Of a stretch of 64,000 bases of DNA, positions 7,170 to 35,043 are shown piece by piece (positions within the stretch are counted from its first letter, which is position 1; each line of letters starts with the position of its first letter). The DNA is from Escherichia phage vB_EcoM_VR26. The stretch lies in the sequence record NC_028957.1; one strand, written 5' to 3'. The position numbers and the translations under genes are program-made. A model generated the notes under the pieces. That model was not told the DNA's origin. It was given only the letters and a program-made list of their open reading frames with translations, and did no database searches.

Positions 7170-8729
7170 ATGAAAAAGAATGCATTAGTTCAAAAATGGT
7201 CCGCTCTGCTGGAAAACGAAGCTCTTCCTGAAATCGTTGGTGCTTCTAAACAAGCTATCATCGCTAAAATCTTTGAAAACCAGGAACAAGATATCCTGAC
7301 CGCTCCTGAATACCGTGACGAAAAAATCTCCGAAGCATTTGGTTCTTTCCTGACTGAAGCTGAAATCGGTGGTGACCATGGTTATGATGCTACCAATATC
7401 GCGGCTGGCCAGACCTCTGGTGCAGTAACTCAGATTGGGCCGGCAGTTATGGGTATGGTTCGTCGTGCTATCCCACATCTGATTGCGTTTGATATTTGTG
7501 GCGTACAGCCTCTGAACAACCCGACTGGCCAGGTATTTGCCCTGCGTGCAGTTTACGGTAAAGACCCTGTAGCTGCTGGTGCTAAAGAAGCTTTCCACCC
7601 GATGTATGCTCCGAACGCTATGTTCTCCGGTCAGGGCGCTGCTGAAGCTTTCGAAGCTCTGGCTGCAAGCAAAGTTCTTACCGTTGGTAAAATTTATTCT
7701 CACTTCTTCGAAGCAACCGGTTCCGCACACTACCAGGCTGTTGAAGCTGTAACCGTTGATGCCGCCGCTACTGATGCTGCTAAACTTGACGCTGAAGTTA
7801 CCAAACTGCTCGAAGCTGGTAAGCTGGCAGAAATCGCTGAAGGTATGGCTACCTCTATCGCCGAACTGCAGGAAGGTTTCAACGGTTCTCAGGATAACCC
7901 GTGGAACGAAATGGGCTTCCGCATCGATAAACAAGTTATCGAAGCTAAATCCCGTCAGCTGAAAGCAAGCTACTCTATCGAACTGGCACAGGACCTGCGC
8001 GCTGTTCACGGTATGGATGCTGATGCCGAATTGAGTGGTATTCTGGCTACTGAAATTATGCTGGAAATCAACCGCGAAGTTATCGATTGGATTAACTACT
8101 CCGCACAGGTTGGTAAATCTGGTATGACCAACACCGTTGGCGCTAAAGCTGGTGTGTTTGACTTCCAGGACCCAATTGATATCCGTGGCGCTCGTTGGGC
8201 TGGTGAAAGCTTCAAAGCTTTACTGTTCCAGATTGATAAAGAAGCCGCTGAAATCGCTCGTCAGACCGGTCGTGGTGCAGGTAACTTCATCATCGCTTCC
8301 CGTAACGTAGTTAACGTACTGGCTGCAGTTGATACCTCCGTATCTTATGCTGCTCAGGGTCTGGGTAAAGGTTTCAACGTTGACACCACTAAAGCTGTGT
8401 TCGCTGGTGTTCTGGGTGGCAAATACCGTGTCTATATCGACCAGTATGCTCGCGCAGATTACTTCACCATCGGTTACAAAGGCGCTAACGAAATGGATGC
8501 TGGTATCTACTACGCACCATATGTTGCACTGACCCCGCTGCGTGGCTCTGACCCGAAAAACTTCCAGCCAGTTATGGGCTTCAAAACCCGTTACGGTATC
8601 GGTATTAACCCGTTCGCTGACCCGGCAGCTCAGGCTCCGACCAAGCGTATTCAAAACGGCATGCCGGACATCGTTAACAGCCTCGGCTTGAACGGTTACT
8701 TCCGCCGCGTATATGTTAAAGGAATTTAA
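7170..8729 (+). CDS. 23: Major capsid protein gp23
   Basis: 519 aa (T4 gp23 521 aa); strong similarity to remembered gp23. Confidence 0.97.
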   Translation: MKKNALVQKWSALLENEALPEIVGASKQAIIAKIFENQEQDILTAPEYRDEKISEAFGSFLTEAEIGGDHGYDATNIAAGQTSGAVTQIGPAVMGMVRRAIPHLIAFDICGVQPLNNPTGQVFALRAVYGKDPVAAGAKEAFHPMYAPNAMFSGQGAAEAFEALAASKVLTVGKIYSHFFEATGSAHYQAVEAVTVDAAATDAAKLDAEVTKLLEAGKLAEIAEGMATSIAELQEGFNGSQDNPWNEMGFRIDKQVIEAKSRQLKASYSIELAQDLRAVHGMDADAELSGILATEIMLEINREVIDWINYSAQVGKSGMTNTVGAKAGVFDFQDPIDIRGARWAGESFKALLFQIDKEAAEIARQTGRGAGNFIIASRNVVNVLAAVDTSVSYAAQGLGKGFNVDTTKAVFAGVLGGKYRVYIDQYARADYFTIGYKGANEMDAGIYYAPYVALTPLRGSDPKNFQPVMGFKTRYGIGINPFADPAAQAPTKRIQNGMPDIVNSLGLNGYFRRVYVKGI

Positions 8730-8751
8730 TCTTAGATTAAGTTAAATAAAA

Positions 8752-8778
8752 AGGGACCCTTGAGGTCCCTTTCTTGTT
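8752..8778 (+). terminator. Rho-independent terminator after gene 23
   Basis: AGGGACC-loop-GGTCCCT hairpin followed by TTCTTGTTTT. Confidence 0.7.
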
Positions 8779-8779
8779 T

Positions 8780-9073
8780 TCATACCATACCATTTAAATG
8801 AACTTCTACCCGGCGCTTGATGAGGTCTCTGAAATTAACACTGTTCTCTTGAAGTTTCAACCAGTTACCCGATTTGTCTCTGGTGTGAGTAGAATAATTA
8901 CCATTCCACCAAAAATCAGTGTCATATGCTAAGTTTTCATATTTTTTAACTAGTTTGTTCAGAGCATTACCATTAACACCATTTGGGTATTTGTTGACCA
9001 ATGCAACAACTTCAATTTCCAGATTTTTAAAGGTATTCCGAAGGAAAGATACTTTGTTCATTTTAGACTCCAT
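8780..9073 (-). CDS. Hypothetical protein (occupies segD position of T4)
   Basis: 97-aa ORF antisense between genes 23 and 24, with its own early-type promoter upstream; no recognisable motif. Confidence 0.5.
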   Translation of the reverse strand: MESKMNKVSFLRNTFKNLEIEVVALVNKYPNGVNGNALNKLVKKYENLAYDTDFWWNGNYSTHTRDKSGNWLKLQENSVNFRDLIKRRVEVHLNGMV

Positions 9074-9097
9074 TGTTTGGTAACTCAGTATGAAATC

Positions 9098-9127
9098 ATT
9101 ATGTCTTATCTTAATCGGGTTGTAAAC
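9098..9127 (-). promoter_or_regulatory. T4 early-type promoter (GTTTAC-N18-CATAAT)
   Basis: -35 GTTTAC and -10 CATAAT on minus strand upstream of 8780..9073; conserved downstream box also at about 35000 and 52000. Confidence 0.55.
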
Positions 9128-9133
9128 AACTTT

Positions 9134-9141
9134 TATAAATA
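9134..9141 (+). promoter_or_regulatory. T4-type late promoter TATAAATA for gene 24
   Basis: Exact TATAAATA 27 nt before gene 24 ATG. Confidence 0.65.
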
Positions 9142-9167
9142 AAGTATATCACAAAAGGAAAGCGCAA

Positions 9168-10448
9168 ATGGCAAAGATTAACAAATTACTGCGCGAGTCA
9201 ACTACCACTACCAGCAACTCCTTGGGCCGCCCGAATCTTGTTGCTTTGACCCGTGCTACAACCAAATTGATTTACCGCGATATTATCGCTGAACAACGTA
9301 CTAACCAGCCAGTTGCTGCGCTGTACGGTGTTAAATATCTTACTCCTGATAATGAATTCAGTTTCCAGACTGGTGCTACTTATGGTGGTGAAGTTGGTTC
9401 TAAAGACCGTGAAACAATTCCGGAATTTACAACCCCAACTCAGGCCGTAGCTAAAGGTGGATACATTAAATTCCAGAATATCGTTTATAAAGCTCTGGTT
9501 GATAATCCATTTGCATCGACCACAGAAACAGTGTTATCTGATGTTCTGCAAGAAGGTCTTGTTGCATTAACTATTCGTTTAGTTCCTGATGCTGCACACA
9601 CCGAAAAATTTGAAGCTGGTGATGTTGAAATTAGTAACGCCGTGTTCCAGGTTAATAAATGGAATGCTCCTGTTAAATCCCGTAAATTGAAAACTGCATT
9701 AACTGTTGAGCTTGCTCAGGATATGGAAGCAAATGGCTTTAATGCTCCTGCATTCCTGGAAGACCTGCTTGCTACTATTATGGCAGATGAAATTAACAAA
9801 GATGTTCTTCAGTCTCTTATTACCGTTTCCAAGCGTTATAAAGTAACTGGCGTTTCTGACAATGGCACCATCGATTTAACATATGATGCAGCTCCAGAAG
9901 GTGCACGTAAACTGTACGAACTGGTTTGTGAAATGAACTCTGAAATTCAGAAAACTACATCTTACTCTGGTACATTCGTTGTTGCCTCAAGTCGTGTGGC
10001 TGCGATGCTCGCCGGTTCCGGTTGGTTGAAACATAAACCTGAAGATGAACAATGGCTCCCGGAAACCGCGTATGGTTATTTGATTAATGGTCTTCCTGTA
10101 TTCTGTGATGTTAACAGCCCATTGGATTATGTGACTGTTGGTGTTAAAGAGAATTATGGTGGTAACGAGGTCGTGGGCTCAATTTTCTATGCTCCTTATA
10201 CAGAAGGCCTGGACTTAGATGATGAAGAGCATGTAGGCGCGTTTAAGGTCATTGTGGACCCAGACAGCTTGCAGCCATCTATCTCCCTGATGGTTCGATA
10301 TGCACTTTCAGCTAACCCTTACACCGTTGCTAAAGACGACAAAGAAGCTCGTATTATCGATGCAACTAATATGGATTTAATGGCTGGCCAGAGCAACATG
10401 TCTTATCTGCTCGGTGTTAAACTTCCACCAATCATTTATGAGGCGTAA
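9168..10448 (+). CDS. 24: Head vertex protein gp24 (copy 1)
   Basis: 426 aa; N-terminus MAKINKLLRESTTT..., close to remembered T4 gp24 (427 aa). Confidence 0.93.
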   Translation: MAKINKLLRESTTTTSNSLGRPNLVALTRATTKLIYRDIIAEQRTNQPVAALYGVKYLTPDNEFSFQTGATYGGEVGSKDRETIPEFTTPTQAVAKGGYIKFQNIVYKALVDNPFASTTETVLSDVLQEGLVALTIRLVPDAAHTEKFEAGDVEISNAVFQVNKWNAPVKSRKLKTALTVELAQDMEANGFNAPAFLEDLLATIMADEINKDVLQSLITVSKRYKVTGVSDNGTIDLTYDAAPEGARKLYELVCEMNSEIQKTTSYSGTFVVASSRVAAMLAGSGWLKHKPEDEQWLPETAYGYLINGLPVFCDVNSPLDYVTVGVKENYGGNEVVGSIFYAPYTEGLDLDDEEHVGAFKVIVDPDSLQPSISLMVRYALSANPYTVAKDDKEARIIDATNMDLMAGQSNMSYLLGVKLPPIIYEA

Positions 10449-11732
10449 ATGCAAAAGATTAACGCACTAATTCACGAATCAACATTAACGGCGGCCAACC
10501 AGGTCGCCCGTCCTAATTTGCTTTCTTATACTCGAGCTACGAATAAACGAATTTTTAAAGCTCTCGTGGCCGAACAGAAAACTACTCAGCCAGTTGCAGC
10601 GCTGTATGGCGTTCGTGTTCTGAACCCAGATGATAAAATGACTTATCTTGGTGGAGCAACGTTTGCCGGTCAAATTGGTATGTTCGAGCGTAAGAATATT
10701 CCAGAATTTACGAACAAAGACGAAGCTTATGCAGTCGGCGATATGTTCCAGTTTGAAAGCATTGTATTCAAAGCTTTGGAAGCTTCTCCTTTTGCCGGGA
10801 CCCTCGAAACTGATTTGGGTGAAGTTATTTCTGAAGCCATTGCGGCTGGCCATATAAGAATGATGTCAGATGCGGCTTTCACTGATAAATTTGAACAAGG
10901 ACATCCTGAAATTGCTGAAGCCGGTTTCCGTATCGATAAATGGCAGACTGAAGTTAAATCCAGAAAACTGAAAACCTCTTTAACCGTTGAGCTTGCGCAA
11001 GACCTGGAAGCAAATGGTTTCGACGCAACAGATTTTATTGATAATATCCTTGGCATTCAAATGGCAGAGGAAATTAATAAGGACGTACTGCAATCTTTAA
11101 TTACCGTAAGTTCACGTTTTAAAGTCCAGGGTGTTTCCGAAAAAGGTGTACTTAATCTTACTGATGCCGCTTATGATAATGCTCAGGACCGTGCTCGAAC
11201 TCTGTATTATTATATGTGCGAAATGAATTCCGCAGTTCAACGTCAGACTTCGTTCGCTGGTACATATGCAGTCGCTTCTTCCCGTTGTGCAGCTATTTTA
11301 GCCGCTTCTGGCTGGGTTGAGAAAAAGGAAGACCAAGATGAATTGGCCTATGGTGTTCTGAAGAACGGTTTGCCACTTTATGCAGATATGAATAGCCCGT
11401 GCGATTATGTTATTGTTGGTGTAAATGCTGATATGGGTGAAGGCCAGACGGTCGCATCTTTGTATTATGCGCCTTATACGGAAGGTCTTAGTGAAGTTGA
11501 TGATGAGGGTGACACCTCGGTTGGGGAATTCAAGGTTATTGTTGACCCTGAAAGTTTACAGCCTACAGTTGCATTGTTAGCTCGTTATGCACTGACTGCG
11601 AACCCTTATACCGTTGCTAAAGACGATAAAGAAGCTCGCATTATTGATGGGGCTGATATGGATAAGATGGCTAACCAAAGTCAATTGAGTTCTTATCTTG
11701 GTGTTAAACTTCCACCACTGGAAAAAGAATAA
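10449..11732 (+). CDS. Head vertex protein gp24 paralog (copy 2)
   Basis: 427 aa, collinear similarity to copy 1 along whole length (shared KSRKLKT.LTVELAQD.EANGF, INKDVLQSLITVS, NPYTVAKDDKEARIID); directly abutting copy 1. Confidence 0.9.
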   Translation: MQKINALIHESTLTAANQVARPNLLSYTRATNKRIFKALVAEQKTTQPVAALYGVRVLNPDDKMTYLGGATFAGQIGMFERKNIPEFTNKDEAYAVGDMFQFESIVFKALEASPFAGTLETDLGEVISEAIAAGHIRMMSDAAFTDKFEQGHPEIAEAGFRIDKWQTEVKSRKLKTSLTVELAQDLEANGFDATDFIDNILGIQMAEEINKDVLQSLITVSSRFKVQGVSEKGVLNLTDAAYDNAQDRARTLYYYMCEMNSAVQRQTSFAGTYAVASSRCAAILAASGWVEKKEDQDELAYGVLKNGLPLYADMNSPCDYVIVGVNADMGEGQTVASLYYAPYTEGLSEVDDEGDTSVGEFKVIVDPESLQPTVALLARYALTANPYTVAKDDKEARIIDGADMDKMANQSQLSSYLGVKLPPLEKE

Positions 11733-20981: not shown

Positions 20982-21605
20982 TTACATAAACTTAAAGAAT
21001 TCTTTAAGCCCCTTAATTACATGGACAGAATGCGCTCCACACTCACAAGAGATAGGAATAGCCATTTGGACCTGTGGCTTGAGAAGTTCTTCCGTTAGTG
21101 CATTGATATCATCGAGGGTAATTGCATTGTACAGGTCCTCGATTTCGGCCTCATTTAAGTCATCAACAACGATGCGCTCGCCGCCTTCCGTGATAATATA
21201 TTCAATGCAACAAGCAATCATTTTTCCTTTATCACCGTCTTCAAACAGTCCAGGATAACGGAATTTAATTTTAAACGACCCGAAATCACGAATAACTTCA
21301 GACTCGTCCACGATGCTCGCGCGGCTTATTGTCACAGGAATGTCTTGTTCCTTTCCGCACTCACATACCCATGTATGCTCGACGTTAACAGCTCCGAGAC
21401 TATTTGCCCAGAGATTAATAAGAAGCAACTCGGCTTCCTGTTTGTTTAACCCTTTAGCATCAGTGCATTTATTAAGCAGTTCAATTATTGCAGGTTCCAT
21501 ACGCTTTTCTAATTTTGCCTGAAGCAAATCTTTATATTCGCGCAAGGTAAAAGCCCTACAATTTATAGTTTTATTTTTAATTTGGACAATAAATTCATAA
21601 GTCAT
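20982..21605 (-). CDS. 26: Baseplate hub protein gp26
   Basis: 207 aa from internal ATG (T4 gp26 about 208 aa); track start is TTG inside the promoter. Confidence 0.8.
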   Translation of the reverse strand: MTYEFIVQIKNKTINCRAFTLREYKDLLQAKLEKRMEPAIIELLNKCTDAKGLNKQEAELLLINLWANSLGAVNVEHTWVCECGKEQDIPVTISRASIVDESEVIRDFGSFKIKFRYPGLFEDGDKGKMIACCIEYIITEGGERIVVDDLNEAEIEDLYNAITLDDINALTEELLKPQVQMAIPISCECGAHSVHVIKGLKEFFKFM

Positions 21606-21622
21606 AATTTGCTCCTTTACTG

Positions 21623-21630
21623 TATTTATA
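21623..21630 (-). promoter_or_regulatory. Late promoter TATAAATA (minus) for gene 26
   Basis: Part of palindromic TATTTATAAATA shared with gene 51 promoter. Confidence 0.6.
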
Positions 21631-21634
21631 AATA
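21627..21634 (+). promoter_or_regulatory. Late promoter TATAAATA (plus) for gene 51
   Basis: Overlapping divergent late promoters as in T4 26/51. Confidence 0.6.
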
Positions 21635-21658
21635 TCAATAAAGATAAAAGGGGATTCT

Positions 21659-22411
21659 ATGGCCAATATCGTAAGATGTGAAATGCCAGACGGAGTTCAT
21701 CGTTTCAAACCGTTTACAGTCGCTGATTACCGTGATTTACTGCTTGTGCGAAACGACATGAACAACAAACCCGTCGAAGAACAAAAACAATTATTAGACG
21801 AACTGTTGGAAGATTATTTTGGAGAATATCCGAAAGCATGGAGACCTTACATATTCCTGAAGGTATTCACTTCCTCTATCGGTAAGACAAAAGTCCCGGT
21901 AGCGTTCGAATGTCAAAAATGTAAAAAGACAAAGCAGACTTTGTTTAACATGAGTCAAGGCCCATTGATAAATCCAACGATGGAAACTGCCGGGATAAAA
22001 ATACAATTTAAGTTCCCTGAAGTGGAATATAAAGATAAGTCGGAGCTTGTTCTAAACACCATCCAGACTGTCGAAGACTCGGAACAAAAGTACAATTGGG
22101 AAGACCTCCCTGAAGAAACGAAGATGCAAGTTATCGATGCAATTGATATAGAAAGTCTCGAAGAGCTCCTTAAGAAAATGCACTCGATTTATCTTCCATT
22201 TACATATGGTTGCTGCGAAAAACACAAAACCGAATATACAGACTTGATTGATGTCTTTAAGCTTATCCTTAACCCGGATGAAGTCTTTGTATTTTATCAA
22301 ATTAACCACTTGCTGGTAAAGAACCAATATACGCTGGATAGCATCATGCACATGATTCCTATTGAACGAGGTATTGCTTTATCACTAGTTGAGAAGGACT
22401 TGAAAAAATGA
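21659..22411 (+). CDS. 51: Baseplate hub assembly catalyst gp51
   Basis: 250 aa (T4 gp51 249 aa); Cys-rich; divergent from gene 26. Confidence 0.85.
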
Positions 22412-35013: not shown

Positions 35014-35043
35014 ATTATGCACTGGTCAAACCCTGTTGTAAAC
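35014..35043 (-). promoter_or_regulatory. T4 early-type promoter (GTTTAC-N18-CATAAT)
   Basis: Same conserved cassette as at 9098 and 52018. Confidence 0.55.

Follow-up and report, generated by a model that had tools for sequence, protein, structure and literature searches.

We interpret the minus-strand open reading frame between head genes 23 and 24 of Escherichia phage vB_EcoM_VR26, with a probability of roughly 80%, as part of a compact, self-contained early transcription unit, in which a promoter, a ribosome-binding site, a 93-codon gene and a terminator together express an accessory gene. The window from which this reading was drawn is a 64,000-nucleotide stretch of the phage genome (NC_028957.1), and the features on which the interpretation is based are, in window coordinates:

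8748 to 8774, both strands: predicted bidirectional intrinsic terminator, stem GGGACC/GGTCCC with a T-run on each strand (terminator scan).
8780 to 9061, minus strand: protein-coding gene, 93 amino acids plus stop (homology, synteny, dN/dS, AF2 model).
9068 to 9071, minus strand: Shine-Dalgarno sequence GGAG, 6 nt before the true start codon at 9061-9059.
9098 to 9127, minus strand: putative T4-type early (sigma-70) promoter, GTTTACA-N17-CATAAT (consensus scan, conservation in 11 loci, RB69 homologue).
9134 to 9141, plus strand: late promoter box TATAAATA of gene 24(1), 26 nt before the ATG at 9168 and invariant in aligned relatives.

The window belongs to a T4-like Gaprivervirus. The 700 bases around the ORF are 99.0% identical to vB_EcoM_VR20 and 97.6% identical to VR7, both members of Gaprivervirus within the Tevenvirinae, and the surrounding genes follow the order of the T4 head-gene block: 20, 67, 68, 21, 22, 23, the ORF, two tandem copies of gene 24, and rnlB. 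The 93-aa protein exactly matches RefSeq entry YP_009214024.1, a VR26 "hypothetical protein", and its gene corresponds to VR26 gp250 in the family that also includes VR7ORF190c, JS98 orf173 and PhAPEC2_170. The antisense slot between genes 23 and 24 holds this ORF in Gaprivervirus, Dhakavirus and Mosigvirus, as well as in divergent metagenomic T4-like phages. Dozens of near-identical genomes in GenBank and RefSeq thus already list its product as a hypothetical protein, and the gene is ordinary in kind. The VR phages have been described as low-temperature isolates. Gene 24 itself occurs in two tandem copies on the plus strand (9168-10448 and 10449-11732), which are separated by zero gap and encode proteins that are 57% identical; the copies are named 24(1) and 24(2) in VR7 and 24a and 24b in JS98, while SP18, PhAPEC2 and T4 have a single copy.

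An initial annotation had described the ORF as encoding 97 amino acids, and we found the reading frame to be real and its length to be overstated by one in-frame start. Read from the first ATG, the minus-strand ORF spans 8780..9073 and 97 codons, and the minus-strand sequence at its start reads ...CCAAACAATGGAGTCTAAAATGAAC... No ribosome-binding site precedes the first ATG (9073-9071), which itself overlaps the GGAG at 9071-9068, whereas the second ATG (9061-9059) is preceded by this same GGAG at a spacing of 6 nt. SP18 and UPEC01 lack the first ATG yet keep GGAG-N6-7-ATGAAC, and the GGAG is present in all 11 loci compared. Because the second ATG follows a conserved GGAG, and the first is unconserved and lacks a ribosome-binding site, we assign the gene to 8780..9061, encoding 93 amino acids. 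The 93-aa form is annotated in VR7, VR20, VR26 and SP18, and the 97-aa form only in CJ20.

Conservation of the ORF is extensive. A tblastn search returned 236 phage records, each covering at least 80% of the query at 36–99% identity, with synteny kept across genera, and pairwise dN/dS among five Gapriverviruses ranged from 0.04 to 0.28, as expected for a real gene under purifying selection. Residues 5-94 of the 97-aa form matched the phrog_6003 profile over positions 1-90 of its 90 (E=4.7e-49), and this full-length match, together with the 23/24 synteny, places the gene in the phrog_6003/VR7ORF190c-JS98 orf173 family of hypothetical proteins. The GC content of the ORF is 35%, compared with 49% for gene 23. 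Two plus-strand ORFs that overlap the gene (8798-8932 and 8919-9083) were set aside and taken as shadows of the conserved minus-strand frame.

The predicted protein is soluble, has a mass of 10.9 kDa and is basic (pI 9.6), with a pI of 9.5–9.6 across the family including its distant relatives. From only 19 aligned sequences, AF2 produced a model with a pLDDT of 93.1 and a pTM of 0.80, in which helices at residues 3-24 and 31-48 are followed by a beta-hairpin (strands 52-61 and 67-71) and a third helix at residues 77-90. This fold is kept at 30–36% identity. Among the 19 family members, M1, K3, F6, N30-G31-N32, A45 and Q71 are invariant, and L14, L21 and N35 are nearly so.

Similarity searches with this protein recovered only its own phage family (phrog_6003, tblastn, profile and Foldseek searches) and no characterised homologue. 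Pfam gave zero families at E<=10 for the protein and none across all 19 family members, PADLOC-DB gave zero defence or anti-defence families at E<=10, and sequence and profile searches of the PDB gave no match. A profile HMM run against 1.84 billion representative sequences returned nine hits, comprising family members or fragments and two long repetitive proteins that we judged spurious. With the AF2 model as query, Foldseek found nothing in the PDB at E<=0.001 and no nuclease-specific match, and in BFVD it found one family member only. All named cluster members are annotated as "hypothetical protein", and literature searches for RB69ORF188c, phrog_6003 and the JS98 gp24 duplication found nothing. 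On the strength of the model and these searches, the 93-aa family is structurally unassigned, having no sequence or fold relatives beyond its own small phage family. The orthologue in EAWsc9 (PQ341120.1 9976-10257) bears the label "glycosyl hydrolase family 25"; this label has no Pfam match behind it and is probably an annotation error. We also considered an internal-protein capsid-targeting or gp21-cleavage motif (L-x-E near residue 15) and rejected it, as its Glu is unconserved across the family.

The slot occupied by the ORF is that of T4 segD, as the initial annotation had stated: segD, too, is a minus-strand gene in the interval between 23 and 24. The window gene is free-standing in an intergenic slot, as are genes of the Seg family, and this likeness is positional only and confers no membership. 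The reported lack of GIY-YIG motifs likewise held up: GIY-YIG and Seg-family membership were rejected on the grounds that no Pfam family was hit, BLASTP against T4 SegD gave E=1.1, and the modelled protein consists of three helices and a beta-hairpin. The two cargoes differ, SegD being a 223-aa GIY-YIG enzyme to which the 93-aa window protein has no similarity, whereas the slot, the antisense strand and the bidirectional terminator are alike.

Comparison with segD-bearing relatives showed that the likeness extends to promoter and leader. Upstream of T4 segD lies TTTACA-17-TATTAT (NC_000866 about 107253-107281, minus strand), which is homologous to the promoter of the window gene and stands in nearly the same register with the TATAAATA box of gene 24; its predicted -35 element is at 107276-107281, its -10 element at 107253-107258 and its start near 107246. 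T4 segD also has a leader, ATAC..AAACGGAG, that is homologous to the one in the ORF family. The T4 segD unit thus appears, from these alignments, to have inherited the early promoter and leader of the ORF cassette. A 2010 review stated that no segD-specific promoter had been found and supposed segD transcripts to be vanishingly rare (PMC2988022). A more recent T4 RNA-seq study (Table S2 of PMC9697503) assigned the segD transcript to the class "early" and the protein to the class "middle", with SegD peptides quantified, although these classes are coarse. The conserved sigma-70 early promoter and leader before T4 segD fit the early RNA and the detected protein and conflict with the statement in the review, and the segD transcript class supports early use of this family of promoters.

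Occupancy of the slot varies widely among related phages. A megablast search with the T4 23-segD-24 region found segD in only 53 of 696 matching records, and in most Tequatroviruses the 23-24 gap is about 85 bp and contains neither the ORF nor the early promoter. By this comparison the gap is a three-state slot that may be empty, hold segD or hold the ORF. The Tequatrovirus fPS-2, whose slot is empty, has the terminator and the late TATAAATA box in its gap and lacks the GTTTAC box. Because the empty slot keeps the terminator and late box without GTTTAC, the early promoter travels with the cargo, and promoter plus ORF behave in these alignments as an exchangeable cassette. In the Tequatrovirus 310Ecol104PP, the gene 23 and 24 flanks are 96–98% identical to T4 while the cassette is identical to that of the Dhakavirus JS98 at 393 of 428 positions, which points to lateral replacement via recombination in conserved flanks. 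The cargo of the slot and its early promoter would accordingly have been exchanged between genera by recombination in conserved capsid-gene flanks.

Several copies of the ORF are broken. In 310Ecol104PP two changes of 10 nt each, one a deletion and the other a tandem duplication, interrupt the frame, with promoter and terminator intact, and in RB69 (NC_004928 about 109210-109632) frameshifting indels divide the copy into ORF188c (41 aa) and ORF189c (29 aa), again with an intact promoter. The split RB69 copy is either a pseudogene or a product of sequencing error in the reference; the PhAPEC2 orthologue is intact. Some further records carry a C-terminal fragment only, such as the 51-aa fragment of phage mogra. 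Since the ORF is absent from most Tequatroviruses, broken in RB69 and 310Ecol104PP, replaced by segD in T4, and reduced to fragments elsewhere, it is evidently dispensable and decays repeatedly, at least so far as laboratory or isolation hosts are concerned. Homologues in rV5-like phages (30–36% identity) lie outside the 23-24 slot, in arrays of small co-directional genes that include a T7 gp0.6-like ORF, and such arrays are a typical setting of early accessory genes.

The resemblance to segD raises the alternative that the gene is left over from a mobile element or acts as the partner of one, being either a degenerate SegD-type DNA-binding fragment or a factor that protects the 23-24 junction from SegD-like cleavage. 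Slot, strand, promoter and leader as in T4 segD, the movement of the cassette between genera, and the basic character of the protein throughout the family would all suit such an origin. We nonetheless regard it as improbable, given that the comparison with SegD is insignificant, that no GIY-YIG, nuclease or DNA-binding Pfam domain was found, that the rV5-like homologues do not adjoin endonuclease genes, and that ordinary recombination in the conserved gene 23/24 flanks explains the transfer. An early unit carrying its own accessory gene remains the reading that we favor, and the transcription signals around the gene bear on it directly.

A consensus scan of positions 8400-9500 gave a single sigma-70-type hit, TTTACA-17-CATAAT at 9126..9098 on the minus strand, which matches the consensus at 10 of 12 positions. 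GTTTACA occupies 9127-9121 in the -35 region and is separated by a 17-bp spacer from CATAAT at 9103-9098 (-10), with the G at 9127 completing a T4-type GTTTAC motif (9127-9122). The start site is predicted near A9091, 7 nt after the -10 element, which would give a leader of 30 nt that is predicted to be unstructured. In the published description of early promoters from T4-like phages, GTTTAC spans -36 to -31 and UP-like, A-rich sequence lies upstream of it, from -40 to -44 (PMC1524935). Taking A9091 as +1, the window site has GTTTAC at -36..-31 and, on the minus strand, ATAAAA at -45..-40, together with the 17-bp spacer and a -10 element with A at -11 and T at -7. The -10 sequence is CATAAT and not TAnnnT, which counts against an early-promoter reading. 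No TGCTT was found in the minus-strand sequence 9062-9180, and we rejected a T4 middle (MotA-dependent) promoter because the MotA box (a/t)(a/t)TGCTT(t/c)A (consensus from PMC1524935), centred near -30, is absent. The GTTTAC motif, the spacer, the A-rich stretch and the lack of a MotA box, together with conservation in 11 loci, support assignment to the T4 early class, in agreement with the early-type promoter of the initial annotation.

By number the hit is unremarkable, since shuffling predicts 2.5 sigma-70 matches in 1.1 kb and 1 was found, and the evidence for this promoter lies instead in its class and its conservation. The pattern TTTAC[AT]-N16-18-[TC]ANNAT occurs nine times in the whole window, compared with 3.8 +/- 2.1 expected from Markov-shuffled sequence, and eight of the nine matches are minus-strand sites that follow a G; by this count the site at 9126..9098 belongs to a strand-biased promoter class. 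Another early-type promoter in the window, at 35042..35014 on the minus strand (GGTTTACA-17-CATAAT), has a -10 element and downstream sequence, GCATAATGATTCCATAC, almost identical to ACATAATGATTTCATAC at 9103-9087. Across loci, the module TATTTATAAA(A/G)(G/A)TTGTTTACA-N17-(C/T)A(T/C)(A/T)AT retains its sequence, its spacing and its register in all 11 compared (the window, VR7, SP18, UPEC01, phage 212, JS98, PhAPEC2, 310Ecol104PP, two metagenomic T4-likes and T4), while the sequence of the 17-bp spacer diverges freely. These loci span at least four genera (Gaprivervirus, Dhakavirus, Mosigvirus and Tequatrovirus) in addition to the two metagenomic T4-likes, and the deviations among them are small: TGTACA in one locus, and in T4 ATTTACA together with a late box that is nearer by 1 nt. 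For the rV5-like homologues, scans of the upstream sequence gave promoter matches that were not above chance.

The terminator at 8748-8774 is common to gene 23, whose stop ends at 8729 on the plus strand, and to the 93-aa gene, whose stop codon is at 8780-8782 on the minus strand. Its predicted folding energy is -15.9 kcal/mol on the plus strand and -17.0 kcal/mol on the minus strand (z about -3), and the site is conserved in VR7, JS98, PhAPEC2, 310Ecol104PP and T4. An Rfam search of 8600-9300 gave only sub-threshold, terminator-like sRNA matches.

The early promoter adjoins the late promoter of gene 24. As is characteristic of T4 late promoters, the TATAAATA box lies on the same strand as the late gene and within ~20-30 nt upstream of its start codon. 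The initial annotation had placed the early -35 element only 7 nt from this box, and this distance proved exact: the 5' end of the -35 hexamer is at 9126 and the box begins at 9134, leaving a gap of 9127-9133. Relative to the early start, the reverse complement of the late box falls at -43..-50 and shares bases with the UP-like, A/T-rich region of the early promoter: part of the minus-strand ATAAAA is the late TATAAATA box read on the opposite strand. The same annotation had called the arrangement convergent, and here it must be corrected. The early promoter has its predicted start near 9091 (minus strand) and the late promoter at about 9147 (plus strand), so that the two are back-to-back and diverge; only the 3' end of the ORF converges with gene 23, and the terminator at 8748-8774 lies between the two.

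Such an arrangement had already been predicted for RB69 in 2006. There, an early-promoter HMM predicted the early promoter Pe:109605 with a score of 29.9, and this site overlaps Pl:109573, a late-promoter prediction from that study (Nolan et al. 2006, PMC1524935); the accompanying terminator "23-><-RB69ORF188c" was predicted in the supplements to the same paper. The RB69ORF188c/189c locus resembles that of the window in gene family (the annotation of PhAPEC2_170 notes similarity to RB69ORF188c), slot, strand, back-to-back promoters and common terminator, and differs in that the RB69 copy is split into two small ORFs whereas the window copy is intact, the proteins being about 36% identical. Like generic T4 early genes, the window gene combines this promoter class with small size, AT-richness, dispensability and patchy distribution, and 13 of the 57 predicted RB69 early promoters precede novel ORFs. 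Unlike those genes, which lie in long early operons, it forms an isolated one-gene unit within a block of late head genes.

These elements suggest how the unit may operate. During the first few minutes after infection, host sigma-70 polymerase would initiate from GTTTACA-N17-CATAAT, at about minus-strand position 9091, and would transcribe the 30-nt leader and the ORF before stopping at the bidirectional hairpin common to gene 23. Because the early transcript would end at this hairpin, antisense RNA against the major capsid gene should be scarce. In T4, initiation that depends on a -35 contact is abolished when AsiA binds region 4 of sigma-70; the window promoter, which is -35-dependent and has no MotA box, would be off once AsiA remodels region 4. 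Later in infection, gene 24 would be transcribed by polymerase with gp55, gp33 and gp45 from TATAAATA, which lies on the opposite strand at a distance of 7 nt. The polymerase footprints of the two promoters probably overlap, and the temporal programme would keep their use apart. The early timing proposed here rests on promoter type and, through promoter homology, on the analogy with T4 segD. Our search for a transcriptome of a phage carrying the ORF family found none, and the PhageExpressionAtlas paper names no RB69, Mosigvirus, Dhakavirus, Tevenvirinae, T4-like or Straboviridae.

The proximity of the two promoters also invites the alternative that the unit exists for its transcription and not for its protein, such that occlusion of the gene 24 late promoter, or antisense pairing, regulates genes 23 and 24. 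The probable overlap of footprints at a distance of 7 nt would allow this, as would the fact that the promoter pairing is kept in register in 11 loci. We consider it very improbable, however, since the promoters are divergent, so that neither collision nor antisense overlap with gene 24 would arise, and a strong bidirectional terminator would halt the early transcript before gene 23. Purifying selection on the ORF and a fold kept at 30–36% identity would be needless for an RNA role, and most Tequatroviruses use the same late box for gene 24 with no adjoining early promoter. The possible interference raised in the initial annotation is therefore unsupported: because the two promoters would act at different times under the T4 programme, and because the same late box serves phages without the early promoter, interference is neither needed nor indicated. 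That the unit is simply a chance open frame in an AT-rich spacer with a fortuitous promoter match, as its shortness, 35% GC, lack of a characterised homologue and unremarkable number of sigma-70 hits might suggest, is refuted by the dN/dS values, the 236 phage records at 36–99% identity, the phrog_6003 match, a pLDDT of 93 from only 19 sequences, and promoter hexamers that are conserved while the spacer sequence diverges.

For the early unit itself, we propose with low confidence that the product is a non-essential early accessory factor. It may act by stoichiometric binding to a host or phage macromolecule, in host takeover, host range or anti-defence, and the specific suggestion that it binds a host factor is tentative. 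An extended version of this proposal, which we think unlikely, holds that the 93-aa basic protein founds a structurally unassigned family, marked by the invariant N-G-N loop and a conserved Gln, of early effectors that neutralise a host factor or defence on particular hosts, and that the promoter and leader form a portable slot later hijacked by T4 segD. If true, such a portable promoter-leader slot would give segD the early promoter that reviews say is absent. The residual novelty of the locus lies in the structurally unassigned protein and in the apparent inheritance of the cassette's early promoter and leader by T4 segD. With a confident model and no fold relatives, the protein is a reasonable, though not outstanding, candidate for host-takeover and anti-defence screens.

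A different pairing of promoters was observed elsewhere in the window. At 21623-21634, the sequence TATTTATAAATA comprises overlapping TATAAATA late boxes, one on each strand, flanked by a 218-aa minus-strand ORF (20982-21638) and a 250-aa plus-strand ORF that begins at 21659. This site looks like a back-to-back late/late promoter pair and, judged by its position, we take it to be perhaps the counterpart of the T4 gene 26/51 junction.
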